Source: Anaerolineae bacterium (GTDB lineage: Bacteria; Chloroflexota; Anaerolineae; DAOTYC01). From it: DNA of 64,000 nucleotides. Positions within the stretch are counted from its first letter, which is position 1, and each line of letters begins with the position of its first letter. The position numbers were made by a program, and so were the translations under genes. Below, one piece after another: positions 5,824-31,122 of this stretch. The stretch spans positions 2,577 through 66,576 of the forward strand of contig DAOTYC010000060.1 of the NCBI GenBank assembly GCA_034435095.1, read 5' to 3'. The notes beneath the pieces are model-generated. The model was given only the letters and a program-made list of their open reading frames with translations, made no database searches and was not told the origin of the DNA.

Positions 5824-6936
5824 ATGCGCATTGCTATCGACGCCAGGCTGGTCTATTACACTCAAGCCGGTATCAGCCAGTACATCAAACGGTTGGTAGA
5901 GTCTTTAGCCGAGCTGGACGATCAAACAGAATATCTGATCTTGCAAAGCCGCAAGCACCGCGCGCCCCTCGTTCAACGCCCAAATTTCAAGCGGATACCC
6001 ATTTGGACGCCATGCCATCACCGTTTGGAGCAGTGGACCCTGCGGTTTGAGATTTCGCCGCTTGATATTGATGTCTTACACAGTCCCGATTTTATCCCGC
6101 CCTTCCGCGGCAACTTTAAGTCGGTCATTACTGTGCATGACCTGGCGTTCTTGCTATACCCGCACTTCTTGACCAAGGAAAGCGCCAGGTATTACGGCCA
6201 GATTGACCAGGCAGTGCGGCGAACAGACCACATCATTGCCGTCTCCGAGGCCACCAAACGTGACTTGATGCAACGGCTGGGTGTGCCGGAGAACAAAGTG
6301 ACCGTGATCTATGAGGCCAGCTCGCCGCAGTATCGTCCCCTGCCTGCTCAAGAAGCCCGCTCTTACGTTCAGGCCAAATTCAACCTGGCAGACGATTATG
6401 TTCTGTTCGTGAGCACGATTGAGCCTCGCAAGAATGTCCCCGGCTTGCTGCAAGCGTTCCGGCAGTTGCTCGATTCATACCGGGTGAAGGTCAAGCTCGT
6501 GCTGGCTGGCGGACGGGGATGGCTCTTCGACGAGGTTTTCGCCACGGTGGGCCGGCTCAACCTGACTGAGCACGTATATTTCTTGGGGCGTGTTGAGACG
6601 GAAGACTTGCCCTATCTCTACAATGCGGCGCGCTTGCTGGTGCATCCCTCTTTCTACGAAGGATTTGGCCTGCCGCCTTTGGAGGCCATGGCCTGTGGGA
6701 CGCCCGTGATCGTCTCCAATGTGTCGGCTCTGCCCGAAGTGGTAGGAGACGCTGGCCTGATGATTGACCCTCAGAACATCTCCGAGCTGGCGGTGGGCAT
6801 GTATCGTCTGCTGACGGATGAAGCGTTGCGCAGCGAAATGATCCACAAAGGACTGGCAAGAGCCGCCTGTTTCTCATGGGAAAAGGCCGCTCGCGAAACA
6901 CTCGAGGTATACCGCAAGGTCAGCCAGAGTAAATGA
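5824..6936 (+). CDS. GT4-family glycosyltransferase
   Basis: C-terminal GT-B signature [23 protein letters not shown]. Confidence 0.85.
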
Positions 6937-24000: not shown

Positions 24001-25089
24001 ATGATGAAAACCTACCGTATCCCGATGGTGCCGGGGCCGACCTCAGCGCCTGAGCCAGTTCTGGCTGCATACACCGTCAACTACGGTTCCGGTGACCTGG
24101 AGCCGGAGTACTACGAACTGTACGAAGAGACCCAAAGCCGCCTGCAAAGGATCATGGGAACCTCCAACTCGATAGTCATCATGAGCGGAGAGGCCATGGT
24201 CACATTATGGGGAGCGTTGAAAAGCTGCCTCAAGCCCGGCGACCGGGTTCTTTGTATCGGAACGGGCGTGTTCGGCTACGGCATCGGCCAGATGGCACGG
24301 TCGGTGACCAGCGATGTCCACTTCGTGGACTTCAGTTACGACGAAATCTGTCGCCCGGAACGGGCCGAAGACGCCATCATGAGCTTACGCCCCAAGATGG
24401 TCACGATGGTGCATTGCGAGACGCCATCGGGCACGCTGAACCCGGTCGCTGAAATCGGCCAGCTCATTCGGTTGCACGGCGTGCCCCTGTTCTACGTGGA
24501 TGCCGTCTCCAGCGCGGGCGGGGTACCTCTGCTCACGAATGAATGGGCCATTGACTTGTGTCTGGTGGGCACGCAGAAGTGTCTGTCCGCCCTGCCCGAC
24601 CTGGGCATATTGTCCGTTAGCGAAAGGGCCTGGCAAGTAATCAAAGAAGTGCGCTATGAAGGTTATGACGCGCTGGGGCCATGGCGGACTGCTTTGAGCG
24701 ACCGCTGGCTTCCTTACACCCCTTCCTGGCAGGCTATGGCAGCCCTGCACACCGCTTGCGGTCTCTTGCTCGATGAAGGCCTCGACCGGGTATTCCAACG
24801 GCACGCGGACGCGGCTCAATTGTGCCGTCGGCGGGCGAAAGAAATGGGGCTGGAACTCTTCCCACGTCGAGAGGAGTATTGCTCTCCCACCGTGACCGCG
24901 CTTAAAGTTCCGGAACGGATCGGCTGGGCCGAACTGGACCGACGCCTGCGTAGCGCCGGCATGGTGGTAGGCGGCTCTCTTGAAAAACTGGCTGGGAAGG
25001 TCTTTCGGATTGGGCACATGGGCACCCAGGCCAACCTGCAACTGGTCGAACAGGCGATGGATGTCTTGGAGCAAATGCTCAGACTTTGA
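24001..25089 (+). CDS. class V PLP-dependent aminotransferase (serine-pyruvate/alanine-glyoxylate type)
   Basis: AAT_I/class V fold, GTQKCLSALPDLGILSV, RBS AAGGAGGAGC-ATGATG. Confidence 0.8.
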   Translation: MMKTYRIPMVPGPTSAPEPVLAAYTVNYGSGDLEPEYYELYEETQSRLQRIMGTSNSIVIMSGEAMVTLWGALKSCLKPGDRVLCIGTGVFGYGIGQMARSVTSDVHFVDFSYDEICRPERAEDAIMSLRPKMVTMVHCETPSGTLNPVAEIGQLIRLHGVPLFYVDAVSSAGGVPLLTNEWAIDLCLVGTQKCLSALPDLGILSVSERAWQVIKEVRYEGYDALGPWRTALSDRWLPYTPSWQAMAALHTACGLLLDEGLDRVFQRHADAAQLCRRRAKEMGLELFPRREEYCSPTVTALKVPERIGWAELDRRLRSAGMVVGGSLEKLAGKVFRIGHMGTQANLQLVEQAMDVLEQMLRL

Positions 25090-25114
25090 GGAATGAGGCA
25101 GTCTGTGTTATAAT
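25086..25114 (+). promoter_or_regulatory. sigma70-like promoter for the rubredoxin-encapsulin operon
   Basis: TTGAGG-17 nt-TATAAT preceded by TGT (extended -10 TGtTATAAT). Confidence 0.5.
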
Positions 25115-25166
25115 TTGTCCGCCTGACAAAATTGTTCAGTAAATTGATACAGGGAGGTTTTACAAC

Positions 25167-25325
25167 ATGGATAAGTGGCAATGTACGGCGTGTGGTTACA
25201 TCTATGACCCGGCAGTCGGCGACCCTGACGGGGGCATCCCGGCCGGAACAGCTTTCGAGGACCTGCCGGACGATTGGGTGTGCCCAGAATGTGGAGTGGG
25301 CAAGGACATGTTTGAGAAGCTGTAG
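25167..25325 (+). CDS. rubredoxin
   Basis: 52 aa, [52 protein letters not shown], with both CxxCG and CPxCG iron-binding knuckles and an AGGGAGG RBS. It is below the ORF-track length cutoff. Confidence 0.85.
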
Positions 25326-25433
25326 GAGCTTAATATTGGGAATAAGTTAATCGAAATCATCGTTTAACTTGGGATAGGGGCCAGGAGTAGTTCTTCCAGT
25401 CTCTATCCCCTCCTCCAAGTGAAGGGGTCAAAG

Positions 25434-26621
25434 ATGCGCCTGGTCATTGTCGGCAATGGCGTGGCGGCCGTTAATGCGGCGTTAACAGCCTTGAAGGTTC
25501 GGCCCAATGCCGAGATTACAGTCTTCTCCGAAGAGCCGTATTACTATTACCCCCGCCCGCGTCTATGGGAGTTTCTGCCGGGCAAGCTGTCGCTAGAGCA
25601 GCTTTACTTCTATCCGCCAAGCTGGTACGAAGAACGTGGCATCATGGTGCAATTGGGAACGCCCGTAGCGCAAATAAAGCCGACTGACAGAGCGGTGATC
25701 CTTAAGAATGGGCAGGGAGCCTCTTATGACCGTCTATTGCTCGCCAATGGGGGGCTTTCCTTTATCCCGCCCATAGAAAACGTACGGCAACGAGGCGTTT
25801 TCGCGCTTCGCAATGTGGAAGATGCCCTGGCCATCCGCGCTTACGCAGAGCGAGCACGTTCGGCAGTGGTCATTGGTGGGGGCTTGCTGGGACTTGAATC
25901 GGCCCGTGGTCTGAAGGACCTGGGGCTTCAGGTGACCGTTGTCGAAATGGCGCCGTGGCTGCTGCCGCGTCAACTCGACGAACCAGGCGCCGCCATCCTG
26001 CGAGAAATCTTCGAGGGTATTGGCATTAAGACGATTACCGGCGCGATCACCCAGGCGATTGAGGGAGAAACCCAGGCGACCGGCATTCTTCTGAAGGATG
26101 GCCGTCGCATCCCCGGCGAGCTTGTTTTGATTTCGGCCGGAGTCCGCAGCAACACCGCGCTGGCCGCGGCGGCGGGATTGCAGGTAAATCGTGGCGTCGT
26201 CGTAGATGAACACATGCAAACCAGCGCGCCGGACATCTACGCCGCTGGGGATGTAATCGAATTTCAGCAACGCAGCTACGGCATCATTCCGGCGGCCATC
26301 GAGCAGGCGCGTGTCGCTGGCGCCAGTTTGTGCGGCGAGTCTGAGCCCACTTATCAGGGCACCGTCCCTTCCAACACCCTGAAAGTGGTGGGGATCAGCC
26401 TGACCACGGTGGGTACGACGGACGCCCCCAATGGCAACTATCGCGAATATCGTATTTCTGACTCATCTCGCGGCCTGTATAAGAAACTGGTGGTGAACAA
26501 CAATAAGCTGGTCGGCGCGATTCTATTGGGTTTTCCCAAAGAGACAGCCCAAATCACCAGAATGGTGCGCGAGCAAGAGCCGCTGGACCGGCCGGTGGAA
26601 GAGTTGCTGCAATTGAATTAG
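25434..26621 (+). CDS. FAD-dependent pyridine-nucleotide-disulfide oxidoreductase, NAD(P)H:rubredoxin oxidoreductase-like
   Basis: MRLVIVGNGVAAVNAA (FAD Rossmann), a second GG motif VVIGGGLLGLE, and ~400 aa. Adjacency to rubredoxin supports the call. ATG ~25434. Confidence 0.7.
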   Translation: MRLVIVGNGVAAVNAALTALKVRPNAEITVFSEEPYYYYPRPRLWEFLPGKLSLEQLYFYPPSWYEERGIMVQLGTPVAQIKPTDRAVILKNGQGASYDRLLLANGGLSFIPPIENVRQRGVFALRNVEDALAIRAYAERARSAVVIGGGLLGLESARGLKDLGLQVTVVEMAPWLLPRQLDEPGAAILREIFEGIGIKTITGAITQAIEGETQATGILLKDGRRIPGELVLISAGVRSNTALAAAAGLQVNRGVVVDEHMQTSAPDIYAAGDVIEFQQRSYGIIPAAIEQARVAGASLCGESEPTYQGTVPSNTLKVVGISLTTVGTTDAPNGNYREYRISDSSRGLYKKLVVNNNKLVGAILLGFPKETAQITRMVREQEPLDRPVEELLQLN

Positions 26622-26650
26622 GCATCTACGAAGCATTCAAGAATGGGAGA

Positions 26651-27184
26651 GTGAAGAAGATGAGTTTGCAAGGCAAGAGAATTGCCATTCTGGCAGAGGA
26701 AATTTATGAAGATATGGAGCTGTGGTACCCCTATTACCGTCTGAAGGAAGCCGGCGCAGAGGTGGTAATCGTGGGCACCGGTTCAGCGAACCAATATCCC
26801 AGCAAGCACGGCATACCGGTCAAAGTTGATGTCGAAGCCGGCAAGATTTCAGCCGATGAGATAGACGGGGTCATCGTGCCCGGCGGGTTCGCGCCTGATA
26901 GAATGCGCCGCTACCCCGCCGTGTTGGAGTTGGTCAAGACCGCTTTCGACCGCGGCAAACTGGTTGCAGCCATCTGTCACGCCGGCTGGGTGTTGGTGTC
27001 TGCGAAGGTGTTGAATGGCCGTAGAGCTACTTGTGTGTCGGCCATCAAAGACGACGTGATCAACGCTGGGGCAACTTATGTAGATGAGCCGGTCGTGGTG
27101 GACGGCAATTTGATTACTTCACGGACGCCGGCAGATTTGCCGGTGTGGTTGCCCGCGATCATTTCATTCCTGGAGGGCAAATAG
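26651..27184 (+). CDS. DJ-1/PfpI-family protein
   Basis: GKRIAILAEE...AAICHAGWVLVSAKVL, with the nucleophile elbow Cys in AICHAG. Confidence 0.8.
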   Translation: MKKMSLQGKRIAILAEEIYEDMELWYPYYRLKEAGAEVVIVGTGSANQYPSKHGIPVKVDVEAGKISADEIDGVIVPGGFAPDRMRRYPAVLELVKTAFDRGKLVAAICHAGWVLVSAKVLNGRRATCVSAIKDDVINAGATYVDEPVVVDGNLITSRTPADLPVWLPAIISFLEGK

Positions 27185-27236
27185 GCAATGGCAAGCCTGG
27201 ATTTGCCCCATAGTTTGTGCTCGAAAGGAGGCAGAT

Positions 27237-28187
27237 ATGGCCGAACTGACCAAACAGCAAATTATCGCCATGCTTAACGAAGACTTGAAAGGCGAACACA
27301 TGGCCATCATTCAGTATCTTCGCCATGCTTACGCGATAGGCGAAGGAGAGGTGGCCTGTGAGATCGAAGCCATTTCGCGGGAAGAAATGTACCACTTTCA
27401 CTGGCTGTCCGAACTGATTGTAGAATTGGGGGGCAAGCCGACCCTCGAACGCGCCAAACTGGACCTTGGCGGGAACGAACCGGCCGACTGGTTGTTTAGA
27501 GACATCCGCGCTGAGCAAGAAGCCATCGCTCTGTACAAGAAACACATCAGCCTGATTGATGACCCTAAGGTCGTGCGCGTCCTGAAACGGATCCTGTCTG
27601 ATGAACAGGCACACGAACAAGACTTTACCAAGCTGATGGAAGAGGTCAAAGCAGAGATGCCGTCGCCCGATGTGCCGGCGACAGAACCTGCGCCAGCTCC
27701 AGATGCGCGATTGGTGGAGATACTGAATCAGGGTGTGCGACACGAGTACACGGTTATCCTCCAGTACCTCTATCATTCACATACGACCCCCCATCGTGGC
27801 ATCGGCGAAGAGCTGCACTGGCAAGCCGTCAATGAGATGCAGCACATGGGCTGGCTCTCTGAGGCTGTCATAGAGCTGGGTGCAGAGGCTGACATGGAGC
27901 ACACCGAAGTCGACCTCTCGGCAGATACAGCCGCGATGTTGAAAGCTGACATTGCTGCCGAACGAGCAGTGACCATGGACTATGACGCCCAGATCAAAGA
28001 GGTGCAGGATGAGGAGATCAGAGAACTGCTGAGCCGCATCCGTGACCATGAAATCTATCACGATGAGTTGTTCACAGAAATGCTGGAAGAATTGCAGAAA
28101 GAAAACCCGCCCTCTGAACAAGACAAACCGGAGTCGGCGACAGGAGATGCTGAAATTCCGACAGTTGGCAGCCTGATCGGCAGGTAA
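27237..28187 (+). CDS. tandem (duplicated) bacterioferritin-like diiron protein with a C-terminal encapsulin targeting peptide (putative encapsulin cargo)
   Basis: Two consecutive complete four-helix-bundle ferritin-like domains. Each has helix A E...QY..H (LNEDLKGEHMAIIQYLRHAY / LNQGVRHEYTVILQYLYHSH), helix B ExxH (EEMYHFHWLSELIVELGG / NEMQHMGWLSEAVIELG), helix C E, and helix D ExxH (DEQAHEQD / DHEIYHDE). The C-terminus ...GDAEIPTVGSLIGR resembles Family-1 encapsulin cargo-loading peptides (hydrophobic-GSL-hydrophobic-G). Confidence 0.7.
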   Translation: MAELTKQQIIAMLNEDLKGEHMAIIQYLRHAYAIGEGEVACEIEAISREEMYHFHWLSELIVELGGKPTLERAKLDLGGNEPADWLFRDIRAEQEAIALYKKHISLIDDPKVVRVLKRILSDEQAHEQDFTKLMEEVKAEMPSPDVPATEPAPAPDARLVEILNQGVRHEYTVILQYLYHSHTTPHRGIGEELHWQAVNEMQHMGWLSEAVIELGAEADMEHTEVDLSADTAAMLKADIAAERAVTMDYDAQIKEVQDEEIRELLSRIRDHEIYHDELFTEMLEELQKENPPSEQDKPESATGDAEIPTVGSLIGR

Positions 28188-28243
28188 CACGAACTTTTAG
28201 CCTGGAAGCGCAGAGAGGCTTTGATTAGATTAAGGAGGAAACC

Positions 28244-29053
28244 ATGAACGAATATCTTTTGCGAGAAGATGCCCCTCTTTCTAAGGAAGATTGGGAACGG
28301 ATTGACAACACGGTAGTCGAAGTAGCCAAAAGGTTGTTGGTTGGGCGGCGATTCATTCATCTGTTTGGCCCACTGGGGCATGGCGTCCAGTTCGTCACCG
28401 TAGACCGACTGGATGGCGCAGCAGGTGATGTCGTCGCTGTGGACTTGAGCCAACGACAGGTCGTCCAGTTGGTCACCATTCAAAAGGATTTCAAACTGCT
28501 GTGGCAAGATCTCGCCAACGGTGAACAGACCGGCTTGAAGTTCGATGTGGGGCCGGTGGCTGTCGCGGCTGTCGCGGCCGCCCAGGCCGAAGACGAACTG
28601 ATCTTCAAAGGTGGGAGTGGCATGGAGGGATTGCTGAGCGTCAAGGGCCACACCACTTCCCCATTGGGCAATTGGGACGAGGTCAATGCAGGTATCATGG
28701 CGGTAGCCGGCGCGGTTGGGAAGCTCATGGGCCGCGGCTTTTTGGGGCCATTTGCACTGGTCACCAACCCCGTGACCTACGCCAAGTTGTTGCGTCCCGT
28801 GCATGGTCAGGGCGCTCAGCTCGAAATCAAACTGGTGGAACAAATCGCGACGGCTGGCATTTTCCAGACACCAGCGTTGAAAGAAAATGAAGCGGTTGTG
28901 GTCTCCACCGGGCCGGAAAACCTCGACCTGGCGGTGGGACAGGACCTGGTCACAGCCTATCTGGGGCCGGACGGCCTGGACCACATCTTCCGCCTGGTAG
29001 AGACGGTCGCCCTGCGCATCAAGCGACCAGGGGCAATTTGCGTCCTGAAATAG
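28244..29053 (+). CDS. Family 1 encapsulin shell protein (HK97-fold, linocin M18-like)
   Basis: MNEYLLREDAPLSKEDWERIDNTVVEVAKRLLVGRRF and the C-terminal DLAVGQDLVTAYLGPDGLDHIFRLVETVALRIKRPGAICVLK align motif-for-motif with T. maritima/M. xanthus encapsulins (L.R..APL....W..ID ... LILGQDLSIGYED...ETFTF). AAGGAGG RBS. Confidence 0.85.
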   Translation: MNEYLLREDAPLSKEDWERIDNTVVEVAKRLLVGRRFIHLFGPLGHGVQFVTVDRLDGAAGDVVAVDLSQRQVVQLVTIQKDFKLLWQDLANGEQTGLKFDVGPVAVAAVAAAQAEDELIFKGGSGMEGLLSVKGHTTSPLGNWDEVNAGIMAVAGAVGKLMGRGFLGPFALVTNPVTYAKLLRPVHGQGAQLEIKLVEQIATAGIFQTPALKENEAVVVSTGPENLDLAVGQDLVTAYLGPDGLDHIFRLVETVALRIKRPGAICVLK

Positions 29054-29083
29054 AGACCAGTCCGTCTGGAATGAACGAGTGAA

Positions 29084-29128
29084 GGAGAGCGAAGATGACC
29101 ATAATTCATCTTCGCTCCTTTTGTTTTT
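29084..29128 (+). terminator. rho-independent terminator ending the encapsulin operon
   Basis: GAGCGAAGATGA-ccataat-TCATCTTCGCTC is a 12-bp perfect stem, followed by CTTTTGTTTTT. Confidence 0.65.
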
Positions 29129-29265
29129 GATAGGCCGGTCAAATTCTAACAAATCTCTAGTGGAATTATCCCTCGATATGGTGTATAATAGAGTTGAACA
29201 AAGGGGAGCCGTTGGGTGGCCCTTACGGTCATGAATCGTGAATGAACTTGAAAGGCTGAAGCAAG

Positions 29266-29928
29266 ATGTCGCACGGGATGTGGGAACTGCCCGACCTTTC
29301 GGAGAACTTATCTCGGCAGAGTGAATCGTTTGGAGAGGACCTCCGTCAGGTCTCCTACGCTGCGGGCGAGACAATCTACACGCCAAAGGCTGGCAGTGAA
29401 GCCGTGTATTTGTTGATCGAAGGCGAAGTACAGCTCTATCGGCTGGGCTCAGACGGCCGACGGTTCACGGTGGCGGTCCTGAAACCGGGTGCAGTATTCG
29501 GTCAGGCCAGCTTGTTGGGCAGCCTGGAGTCGGAAACGTATGCTGAAGCGACCGCGCCGTCCGCTGTGTGGTGTATTGCCGGACGCAGTGCTCAGGAGGT
29601 GTTTTCGCGCAGTCCCAGCCTCAGATTTGGCCTGCTCACCGGGCTGAGCCGACGCCTGGCCGATGCTGAGGAGCGTCTGGAGTGGATGGCCTACAAAAAG
29701 GTCTCGGCCCGGCTGGCCGGGCTGCTGCTGCAAATGATGGATGCAGAACGAAAAACGGTCACAGGCATCACCCATCAGAAGATGGCAGATATGCTGGGCG
29801 CGTACCGTGAGACTGTCAGCCAGGCGTTCAGAGAGCTTCGCGTTAAAGGCCTGGTCAGCCCTGGTCGCAAGAACATCAAGATACTGAACCCGGAGGGGCT
29901 CAGAAAAATGGCTGAGAATATGAATTAG
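29266..29928 (+). CDS. Crp/Fnr-family transcriptional regulator
   Basis: N-terminal cNMP-binding beta-roll and C-terminal HTH (MADMLGAYRETVSQAFRELRVKGLV). No N-terminal Cys cluster is seen, so it is probably not an Fe-S FNR. Confidence 0.85.
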   Translation: MSHGMWELPDLSENLSRQSESFGEDLRQVSYAAGETIYTPKAGSEAVYLLIEGEVQLYRLGSDGRRFTVAVLKPGAVFGQASLLGSLESETYAEATAPSAVWCIAGRSAQEVFSRSPSLRFGLLTGLSRRLADAEERLEWMAYKKVSARLAGLLLQMMDAERKTVTGITHQKMADMLGAYRETVSQAFRELRVKGLVSPGRKNIKILNPEGLRKMAENMN

Positions 29929-29941
29929 GAGGTAACTTGTA

Positions 29942-30370
29942 ATGTACAGCAAAATCGTCGTGACTCTCGACGGGTCTGCTCATGCCGAATGTGCACTCTC
30001 ACATGCCGAAGCATTGGCCAAGAGCCTGGGCGTCGAGCTGGTGCTGCTGCAAGTAGTCCCTTACCCCGAGGTGAGGGATGAAGCTGTTGAGCTCGAATGG
30101 CAGGAAGCCGCCCGCAAGTATATGGACGACATTGCGGCGGGCCTCAAGAGCCTGGGAGTCGAATCCCGTGTCGAAGTCTTATGGGGAGATGTGGCTGAGA
30201 AGATCGTTGAATATGTGGAAGAAGACAAGAATGCTCTGTTGGTGATGTCCACGCATGGCCGGACAGGATTAGCTAAATTGGCATTTGGCAGCGTCACCGA
30301 AAGAGTGTTAAGAGAGGCAAAGACCACTCCAGTGCTTGTGTGTCGTTGCATGGACAGCGGCGCTGCATAG
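29942..30370 (+). CDS. universal stress protein (UspA family)
   Basis: MYSKIVVTLDGSAHAECAL...VMSTHGRTGLAKLAFGSVTERVLREAKTTPVLV. Confidence 0.85.
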   Translation: MYSKIVVTLDGSAHAECALSHAEALAKSLGVELVLLQVVPYPEVRDEAVELEWQEAARKYMDDIAAGLKSLGVESRVEVLWGDVAEKIVEYVEEDKNALLVMSTHGRTGLAKLAFGSVTERVLREAKTTPVLVCRCMDSGAA

Positions 30371-30567
30371 GTCGCTTTTCCCGACTTCATGGGCCACCGG
30401 GCAGGCTCTTCATCAGGCGGCACGCGCTGCTTGATGGAGAGCCTGTCTTATTTCACGGACTATGCAGCTTATGTTGCCAGTAATCCAAAGTGGTGTATAA
30501 TCATTGTCGGGCGCACCTGCTGATATTCCCACCTTCACCGCGCTGGACATACAAGGAGGTCACGCAA

Positions 30568-31122
30568 ATGAACGTACTGAACCGCATTATTGTGGTGATT
30601 CTGTTGTTGATTTTGGTGGTCCTTATGCCTGTGCTGATATTCTTTATCATGGCGATGCCAGAAACTTCCATCGCCGCAGTCGAACAGGCTGTTTCATTCA
30701 TCAAGTCGCAAATGTCTTTCTTCAATCGTTTGATTTTCTCTATACTCGCGGCCGTGGTGTTCGTGGTATCTCTGTTCCTGCTCTGGGTGGAAGTCCGCCG
30801 GCCTAAGGCGCGAGTCGTCGCCGTCCAGGAAGTGAAAGTGGGAGAAGCGCGAGTCAACATTGACTCCATCGTTCAGCGACTGGAATACAATATTGACCGC
30901 CTGCAGGATGTCGTGAGCGCCCGACCGGTGGTGAAACCAAAGGGCAACGGCGTGGATGTGCTGGTTCACCTGGAAACCGCACCAGAAATTGACATTCCGA
31001 TGAAGACCGAGGAGGTCGTCCAGCTCACCCGTGAAGTGATTGAATCGCAAATGGGTCTGAAGCTGCACAATGTCAGCGTCGAGATCAAACACGCGCCGTA
31101 CCCTGAAGACACGGTTTTATAG
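30568..31122 (+). CDS. membrane-anchored hypothetical protein (AmaP/alkaline-shock-anchor-like)
   Basis: N-terminal TM MNVLNRIIVVILLLILVVLMPVLIFFIMAM, a second TM, then a soluble domain. RBS AAGGAGG. The promoter -10 is GGTGTATAAT at ~30491-30500. Confidence 0.45.
   Translation: MNVLNRIIVVILLLILVVLMPVLIFFIMAMPETSIAAVEQAVSFIKSQMSFFNRLIFSILAAVVFVVSLFLLWVEVRRPKARVVAVQEVKVGEARVNIDSIVQRLEYNIDRLQDVVSARPVVKPKGNGVDVLVHLETAPEIDIPMKTEEVVQLTREVIESQMGLKLHNVSVEIKHAPYPEDTVL

Follow-up and report, generated by a model that had tools for sequence, protein, structure and literature searches.

A 64-kb stretch of DNA from an uncultured Chloroflexota (Anaerolineae) bacterium (contig DAOTYC010000060.1, positions 2,577 to 66,576; hereafter the window) contains five co-directional open reading frames (ORFs) encoding rubredoxin (Rd), an NAD(P)H:rubredoxin oxidoreductase-like flavoprotein (NROR), a DJ-1/PfpI protein, a double ferritin-like protein (DFLP) and the shell protein of an encapsulin nanocompartment. 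Their arrangement and flanking signals indicate a real five-gene operon. The reading favored here, at a probability of roughly 55%, is that the locus is a Family-1 encapsulin operon with DFLP cargo, and that it represents one module of the Rd-dependent cluster with which Chloroflexota defend themselves against O2 and reactive oxygen species (ROS).

The shell protein (269 aa; 28244..29053, forward strand) scores 251.1 bits against the equivalog model NF041155 (cut-off 100) and 224 bits against PF04454 (E 2e-66; cut-off 24.3). The closest solved shells are Myxococcus xanthus EncA (4PT2/7S20, E 2e-60) and that of Quasibacillus thermotolerans (6NJ8), and the best PDB matches are all encapsulins; the Thermotoga maritima encapsulin reaches E 4e-19 only. 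The window shell is a Family-1 encapsulin of the EncA/IMEF-shell clade. A T. maritima-type flavo-encapsulin was rejected on this distant relationship, the conserved Trp W87 being a lead and not evidence. The shell gene begins 56 bp after the DFLP gene, so that a cargo gene bearing a targeting peptide (TP) lies directly upstream, as in Family-1 systems.

The cargo gene (27237..28187, forward strand) encodes a protein of 316 aa with two bacterioferritin-like four-helix bundles, matched by PF00210 in two stretches. Residues 5-288 align with residues 12-296 of the solved structure 9VIW (E 1e-46), which is the DFLP of Thermocrinis minervae (TmDFLP; Anuchina et al., 2025, bioRxiv 10.1101/2025.09.13.676036). 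An intact E-E-H-E-E-H diiron motif is found in both the N-terminal half (E20/E50/H53/E93/E123/H126) and the C-terminal half (E170/E200/H203/E242/E272/H275), and the heme-ligand methionines M51 and M201 are kept; both motifs and both methionines are invariant in an alignment of 16 homologs (A1). DFLPs are recognized by an EEHEEH motif in the N-domain, present also in about 57% of C-terminal domains, and by two fully conserved heme-ligand methionines (Anuchina et al., 2025), and the window cargo is a member of this family. DFLPs group next to bacterioferritins in the published phylogeny and are homodimers with bacterioferritin-type diiron sites and ferroxidase activity, as demonstrated for TmDFLP and CaDFLP (Anuchina et al., 2025). 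The ferroxidase reaction of TmDFLP slows as Fe3+ builds up, heme binding by DFLPs in vitro is sub-stoichiometric, and many DFLPs terminate in an encapsulin-targeting peptide of the form xTVGSL (Anuchina et al., 2025). A rubrerythrin identity was rejected for the cargo, which has no Rd domain and scores 37 bits against PF02915 vs. 72 bits against PF00210.

The window DFLP ends in the predicted C-terminal TP IPTVGSLIGR (28155..28184, forward strand), which follows a low-complexity linker rich in Pro and Glu. Among long-form homologs the TVGSL core is invariant and the linker hypervariable. When P-T-V-G-S-L is set against the published motif [LF]-x-[VI]-x-x-[LI], positions 3 and 6 fit and position 1 is Pro, preceded by Ile; this Pro variant also occurs in the related loci L004, L005, L036, and L060. 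Co-occurrence of TP and shell was scored at 75 related loci that could be evaluated, from 73 species-representative genomes and two metagenome contigs. Each DFLP ORF was extended to its stop and scored for a TVGSL-like motif within 30 residues of the C-terminus and for an encapsulin gene no more than 400 bp downstream. Both features are present at 14 loci and neither at 60; a TP alone was seen once (L036) and a shell alone never (Fisher p = 3e-14). Apart from DFLP, no ORF of the 64-kb window (Rd, NROR and DJ-1 included) has a TVGSL-like motif close to a terminus, nor was one found there in the non-DFLP ORFs of 15 related loci bearing an encapsulin or a TP. The co-occurrence of TP and shell, together with the lack of any other tagged ORF, indicates that DFLP is the cargo and that Rd, NROR and DJ-1 would lie outside the shell. 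With no targeting peptide found on any of these three, they were rejected as tagged secondary cargo or as an encapsulated reductant of the IMEF-ferredoxin or EncD type.

In a rough neighbor-joining tree the TP/encapsulin status switched at least twice, and a single "add-on" origin of encapsulation was rejected, with neither gain nor loss claimed. At L036 (2659-3609) a DFLP with a clear TP, PPTVGSLFGQKQE, is preceded by genes for DJ-1, Rd, NROR and Rd, but the 8 kb downstream contain no encapsulin gene; this DFLP may be a secondary cargo or an orphan.

A sigma-70-type promoter, TTGAGG-17-(TG)tTATAAT, precedes the operon (25086..25114, forward strand; 10/12 matches with a TG extension), its -35 element overlapping the aminotransferase stop codon upstream. 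Six promoter-like sites were found against 3.6 expected, and the hexamer pair by itself is within chance. The -35 and extended -10 elements are nevertheless kept at identical spacing in L004 and L005, whose DFLPs are about 69% identical to that of the window, whereas the leader sequence diverges. Besides these elements, the three-way promoter alignment holds no conserved palindrome that could serve as a PerR, Fnr or Crp operator. The operon closes with an intrinsic terminator (29087..29127, forward strand) made up of a 12-bp stem, a 7-nt loop and a T-run (fold z = -3.65). Gaps between the five genes measure 38-108 bp, and Shine-Dalgarno sequences precede the cargo and shell genes.

The complete gene order and both flanks (the aminotransferase gene upstream, Crp-family and universal stress protein genes downstream) are kept in L004 and L005, two further species-level lineages, at 64-88% amino-acid identity, far above chance expectation. 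The GC content stays between 0.52 and 0.61 across the region with no compositional step, and a recent horizontal insertion of the shell gene was rejected on this ground. Could the "shell" gene instead encode the HK97 capsid of a prophage, with its neighbors brought together by chance? The HK97 fold is common to encapsulins, and a weak secondary match to PF09950 (Major_capside) was obtained at 22.6 bits, below the cut-off. Against a capsid stand the equivalog score, the nearest solved structures, which are encapsulins throughout, the tagged cargo gene directly upstream and the absence of phage genes nearby, and chance juxtaposition is at odds with the flat composition and with synteny kept in three lineages. 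Such an artefact is refuted by these observations and is regarded as extremely improbable.

The spacer between the rd and NROR genes (25326-25433) folds at -35.2 kcal/mol (z = -3.0) and contains a GC-rich hairpin without a U-tract (25371..25409, forward strand). Hairpins of other sequence, with no clear U-tract, occupy the equivalent position after rd in L004 (about 6089-6122) and L005 (about 6077-6122). No Rfam match was obtained at E <= 1 for the leader or the spacers, this hairpin included. With a stable hairpin 3' of rd in all three relatives, expression along the operon may be non-uniform: the structure may act as a leaky attenuator of read-through, or may stabilize an rd-only transcript and so provide surplus rubredoxin.

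The three genes upstream of the cargo were assigned as follows. Rubredoxin (52 aa; 25167..25325, forward strand) matches PF00301 (E 2e-25) and NF045768 (95.7 bits; cut-off 90) and has both Cys pairs of the CxxCG...CPxCG pattern, reading WQCTACGY...VCPECGVGK. The NROR-like flavoprotein (25419..26621, forward strand; GTG at 25419, or 395 aa from the ATG at 25434) combines an FAD/NAD fold with two dinucleotide-binding domains and a rubredoxin-reductase C-terminal domain, matching Pyr_redox_2 (PF07992, E 3e-56), PF00070 (E 5e-21) and Rubredoxin_C (PF18267, E 6e-17). Among solved structures it is closest to 3KLJ (E 2e-46) and 1XHC, and it reaches no NCBIfam equivalog cut-off. The NROR and rubredoxin genes are linked, being adjacent here and in many other loci; in L085, NROR starts right at the end of rd. 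The DJ-1/PfpI protein (26651..27184, forward strand; 174 aa from the ATG at 26660) matches PF01965 (E 4e-52) and TIGR01382 (176.7 bits; cut-off 139.05), carries the Cys-His nucleophile motif AICHAG and scores 161 against the PfpI deglycase equivalog, short of the 330 required. The true starts of NROR and DJ-1 are probably the ATGs called in public assemblies and not the GTGs of the longest ORFs.

Much of this had been anticipated in an earlier note on the same DNA. The five co-directional genes lie where it placed them and each family call clears curated cut-offs of hidden Markov models (HMMs) from Pfam and NCBIfam; the rubredoxin, NROR-like and DJ-1/PfpI identities hold, with the NF045768 and TIGR01382 cut-offs passed. 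Its Family-1 shell, for which it had proposed an HMM check, passes that check, and its diiron ferritin-like protein is corroborated by two intact diiron motifs and the alignment with 9VIW. The encapsulin targeting peptide that it saw at the cargo C-terminus agrees with the tracking of TP and shell described above, and the single promoter and the strong terminator that it described are both present, the former with its -35 and extended -10 elements conserved.

Why should a rubredoxin and its reductase lie beside an encapsulin? In a genome scan with one genome per species, DFLP relatives were found in 386 species, and the closest 80 are all from Chloroflexota metagenome-assembled genomes. Neighborhoods were charted by tblastn of the window proteins against the fetched loci, with Pfam applied to the genes filling the gaps. 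Encapsulin-free loci of Anaerolineales form one co-directional string of a Fur/PerR-like gene, Rd, flavodiiron protein (FDP), NROR, rubrerythrin (Rbr), DJ-1, a desulfoferrodoxin-type superoxide reductase (SOR), a short DFLP without TP, and an FMN reductase, and Dehalococcoidia loci read Rd-FDP-(SOR)-DFLP. Where the DFLP locus is fully flanked, a co-directional Rd is nearby in 34/44 cases, with an encapsulin or without one, and at least one Rd-pathway gene in 40/44, and all 288 of 288 neighbor matches are on the DFLP strand. The window rubredoxin is 83-87% identical to rubredoxins from encapsulin-free ROS clusters, and the DJ-1 gene also occurs within encapsulin-free Rd clusters. In Chloroflexota, DFLP is a regular extra member of the classical anaerobe defence in which NAD(P)H, NROR and Rd feed FDP, SOR and Rbr, and the window operon is a pared-down version of the ROS cluster (Rd, NROR, DJ-1, and DFLP) combined with a shell gene.

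Under the favored reading, exposure to O2 or H2O2 would induce transcription of the operon, and DFLP dimers would be loaded through the TP into an EncA-like shell. Fe2+ would be oxidized with O2 or H2O2 at the bacterioferritin-type diiron centers, the ferroxidase activity being that of the homolog TmDFLP, and Fe3+ would be laid down in the lumen as a mineral, removing Fenton-active iron. Meanwhile, cytosolic NAD(P)H -> NROR -> Rd would supply reducing power to the anaerobe ROS defence in general, with DJ-1/PfpI repairing or detoxifying damaged molecules. The oxidative-stress flavor that the earlier note gave to the locus is judged right. Its further claim, that Rd and NROR are a "dedicated" electron-delivery pair for the encapsulated protein, was not substantiated. 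Encapsulin loci show no enrichment of Rd (4/12 vs. 42/68), and in most loci Rd lies beside its canonical clients FDP, SOR and Rbr. Neither Rd nor NROR is nearby at 5/12 encapsulin-DFLP loci of species-representative genomes. These counts, together with membership of the cluster, make shared ancestry and regulation of a stress cluster a simpler account than a dedicated pair, and on the favored reading the two genes would be co-transcribed with the compartment for these reasons.

Several observations weigh against this account. NROR, as opposed to Rd, is enriched at encapsulin loci (7/12 vs. 15/68, p = 0.016, a test that ignores phylogeny), and in two gene orders. Neither the operon nor the rest of the 64-kb window encodes FDP, SOR, Rbr or PerR, and DFLP appears to be the only candidate Rd acceptor visible there. 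In Chloroflexia (L016 and L040) NROR begins within the stop codon of the encapsulin gene, in a context of metal homeostasis with no ROS cluster. A natural Rd::DFLP::TP fusion (392 aa; P0033/P0188) lies directly upstream of an encapsulin gene in one lineage, where it was recovered from three independent assemblies one residue apart (L003 5517-6695; L085 8001-9179; L086 252-1430), downstream of genes for a free Rd, NROR and Rbr under a Fur-family gene. The TP of the window cargo itself departs from the published motif, with Pro in place of Leu or Phe at position 1.

Electron delivery from Rd and NROR to the encapsulated cargo is possible. That cytosolic NAD(P)H -> NROR -> Rd serves as the dedicated partner of the encapsulated heme/diiron DFLP, in catalytic peroxidase/oxidase turnover or in reductive release of iron, is held only tentatively, with the odds against it, and both forms of the proposal share a topological problem, since Rd and NROR are untagged and the cargo would be inside the shell. 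A folded rubredoxin of 5.6 kDa should not get through encapsulin pores. In the iron-release form, Rd reduced by NROR would reduce the DFLP heme and mobilize stored Fe2+ after stress, filling in an anaerobe the role that Bfd/FPR plays for bacterioferritin and paralleling the TP-tagged IMEF ferredoxin and M. xanthus EncD. DFLP keeps the bacterioferritin-type Met-Met heme site, through which electrons of a small Fe-S protein reach the core in Bfr (PMC8346489), and encapsulin-linked reductants are known in the IMEF ferredoxin (PMC8346489) and in EncD (PMC11126975). The translational coupling of NROR to encapsulin in Chloroflexia, beside a metal ATPase and a YHS-domain protein and not beside ROS genes, also fits, as does the FMN reductase gene found directly 3' of DFLP in many encapsulin-free clusters and 3' of the encapsulin gene in L004. 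The two known reductants of encapsulins, however, are TP-tagged cargo, whereas Rd and NROR carry no tag; 5/12 encapsulin-DFLP loci lack a nearby reductase, and the heme content of DFLPs in vitro is sub-stoichiometric. Iron release along this route is considered unlikely.

The model of the earlier note, an encapsulated NAD(P)H-driven peroxidase/oxidase in which Rd would re-reduce the DFLP diiron centers for rubrerythrin-like turnover of H2O2 or O2 within the shell, is rated as quite improbable. It gains from the company that DFLP keeps, since the other terminal members of its clusters (FDP, SOR, and Rbr) are all Rd-dependent reductases, and from the window, which holds no other Rd client. The Rd::DFLP::TP fusion of the three assemblies, directly upstream of encapsulin, has the domain order of reverse rubrerythrin, and an NROR::Rd fusion adjoins the DFLP-encapsulin pair in L060. 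Yet the diiron sites and phylogeny of DFLP are bacterioferritin-like (PF00210 72 bits vs. PF02915 37 bits), TmDFLP acts as a ferroxidase whose rate falls with the build-up of Fe3+, Rd is unenriched at encapsulin loci, and the shell would separate untagged Rd and NROR from the cargo. The fusion is restricted to a single lineage: when it was used as query, all other close relatives among the 120 best matches were unfused. It is therefore counted as weak evidence for direct coupling, and the idea of Rd-DFLP fusions as a common Rosetta stone was dropped.

The shell-cargo pair is a known type of Family-1 operon, and Rd, NROR and DJ-1 are known members of the anaerobe ROS pathway. The 2021 encapsulin catalog describes a "Bfr" cargo of two four-helix bundles in a few Firmicutes, Aquificae, Chloroflexi and Cyanobacteria (Andreas & Giessen, PMC8346489). 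The comparison with published catalogs proposed in the earlier note, once run, thus places the pair in this cargo class and in the DFLP family (Anuchina et al., 2025). The configuration as a whole, which the earlier note did not recognize as characterized, is new in part only: a shell with a two-bundle ferritin is cataloged (PMC8346489), and a DFLP-encapsulin pair joined with Rd, NROR and DJ-1 in one operon was not found in the literature available to search. The text of the 2021 catalog and those of its supplements available to search mention rubredoxin once, in an unrelated DyP neighborhood (PMC8346489). Near the CaDFLP-encapsulin pair of Caldanaerovirga acetigignens, genes for a rubredoxin-domain protein and a rubrerythrin are on record (Anuchina et al., 2025). 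With these Bfr/DFLP operons the window shares the two-bundle cargo, the C-terminal xTVGSL, the position directly upstream of a Family-1 shell and the invariant diiron and Met residues; it differs in adding free Rd, NROR, and DJ-1 under one promoter, an accessory set absent from the descriptions in both papers, and in the Pro at TP position 1.

Other iron-handling encapsulins offer closer parallels for the shell or for the reductant. The M. xanthus EncA/EncB/EncC/EncD system has the closest solved shell, a TP core of LTVGSL and, as predicted for the window, a ferroxidase cargo together with a reductase. EncA W96, aligned to the flavin-binding Trp of T. maritima, is kept in the window shell as W87, whereas about 9 residues are missing in the region aligned to EncA 60-75. 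EncB and EncC are half-ferritins of the EncFtn type in place of a two-bundle DFLP. EncD, a flavin ferric reductase that draws on added NAD(P)H to free Fe2+ from the EncA shell (PMC11126975), is TP-tagged cargo, unlike the NROR and Rd of the window. The IMEF encapsulins of Firmicutes are likewise iron-mineralizing Family-1 operons with a small Fe-S carrier, proposed to reduce and release stored iron (PMC8346489). That carrier is a Bfd-like 2Fe-2S ferredoxin which has an N-terminal TVGSL and co-purifies with the shell; the window has an untagged rubredoxin with its own NAD(P)H reductase.

Among anaerobe ROS clusters, the NROR-Rd-FprA-Dfx-revRbr pathway of Clostridium acetobutylicum has been described, with PerR control in clostridia (PMC7482061). 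The window follows the logic of this pathway and of NROR-Rd-SOR-Rbr in Pyrococcus furiosus, in which electrons pass from NAD(P)H through NROR and Rd to a terminal reductase, and its Rd, NROR and DJ-1 are orthologous to members of the full Chloroflexota cluster. It departs from both in lacking FDP, SOR, Rbr and PerR, in having a predicted encapsulated ferroxidase instead, and in its neighboring regulator of the Crp family. Rubrerythrin and reverse rubrerythrin combine a diiron four-helix bundle with a rubredoxin center, an order that the rare Rd::DFLP fusion copies in its reverse form; the window cargo lacks such a domain, consists of two bundles with a Bfr-type heme site, and groups with bacterioferritins. 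In the anaerobe Desulfovibrio desulfuricans, bfr shares an operon with the gene for rubredoxin-2, the redox partner and reductant of the Bfr heme, a precedent that speaks for the iron-release form. The Bfr of that operon forms a free 24-mer cage with no encapsulin, and neither NROR nor DJ-1 is encoded beside it.

A number of further arrangements were seen around DFLP genes. The Chloroflexia order (L016 7110-11016; L040 7127-11028; L017) runs from a YHS-domain protein through a membrane protein and a DFLP ending in WTVGSL to a 290-aa encapsulin and an NROR-like gene; next to the unit are genes for a HEAT-repeat protein and a heavy-metal P-type ATPase, and free rubredoxin is missing from the surrounding 8 kb. 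Directly upstream of the Rd::DFLP::TP fusion is an ORF of 62 aa (L085 7804-7992; L003 5320-5508) that weakly matches the metal-binding TRASH domain, echoing the YHS-domain protein upstream of the Chloroflexia units. After the NROR::Rd fusion of L060 (6268-7731; 487 aa; Pyr_redox_2, Rubredoxin_C, and PF00301) come a half-ferritin ORF of 69 aa, a DFLP with a TP, encapsulin and superoxide reductase. Half-ferritin ORFs of this kind (69-70 aa, partially rubrerythrin/EncFtn-like, with one ExxH) are enriched near encapsulin-DFLP pairs (6/12 vs. 7/68). They are untagged and occur near encapsulin in L017, L023, L039, L043, L060, and L061, and also in L040 (11038-11250); none is present in the window. 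Genes for an NAD(P)H-dependent FMN reductase/flavodoxin-like protein lie directly 3' of DFLP in L029 (8856-9446) and 13 other encapsulin-free GTDB loci, and 3' of the encapsulin gene in L004 (9891-10559). With an FMN reductase habitually 3' of it, DFLP is habitually flanked by a reductase.

Downstream of the terminator, a Crp-family regulator with a cNMP-binding domain and HTH_Crp_2 (29266..29928, forward strand) probably forms its own transcript and is syntenic in L004 and L005. It has a single Cys, and the FNR-type cluster motif is missing, so it is not an Fe-S FNR. Its match to the Family-2B encapsulin model NF041163 (35.7 bits; cut-off 400) reflects just the common cNMP-binding domain. A universal stress protein (Usp; 29942..30370, forward strand; PF00582, E 1e-28) follows as a conserved neighbor. 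Both genes of the Crp/Fnr and UspA pair reported in the earlier note are therefore present, and the Fnr part of the name does not apply. After Usp comes an AmaP-like alkaline-shock membrane-anchor protein (30490-31122; 51 bits, slightly under the cut-off of 55), preceded by a long hairpin (30400-30447) and by the best promoter-like site of the region (30474-30501; 11/12). The Crp, Usp, and AmaP-like genes look like a general stress island.

What does the locus add? An oxidative-stress context for an iron encapsulin will be of little surprise to the specialist. A stress role for DFLPs could not be established from the two gene neighborhoods inspected previously (Anuchina et al., 2025), and DFLPs as standard members of Chloroflexota Rd-dependent O2-defence clusters were found undescribed in the literature available to search. 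The presence of DFLPs, mostly unencapsulated, in these clusters of anaerobic Chloroflexota points to a role in O2 or peroxide stress. The locus also bears on two questions in the field, namely how encapsulin-stored iron is released and how electrons gain access to encapsulated redox cargo; the route by which NAD(P)H enters the shell is debated for EncD (PMC11126975). A dedicated chain, if true, would call for electron transfer across the encapsulin shell or co-packaging within it, and would make this the first natural operon with a complete electron chain from pyridine nucleotide to cargo for a protein nanocompartment. The operon offers a compact set of parts under one promoter, comprising the shell, a heme/diiron cargo, rubredoxin and its reductase, and the Rd-DFLP fusion, the NROR-Rd fusion and the coupled encapsulin-NROR pair provide natural variants with which to approach the question of electron access.

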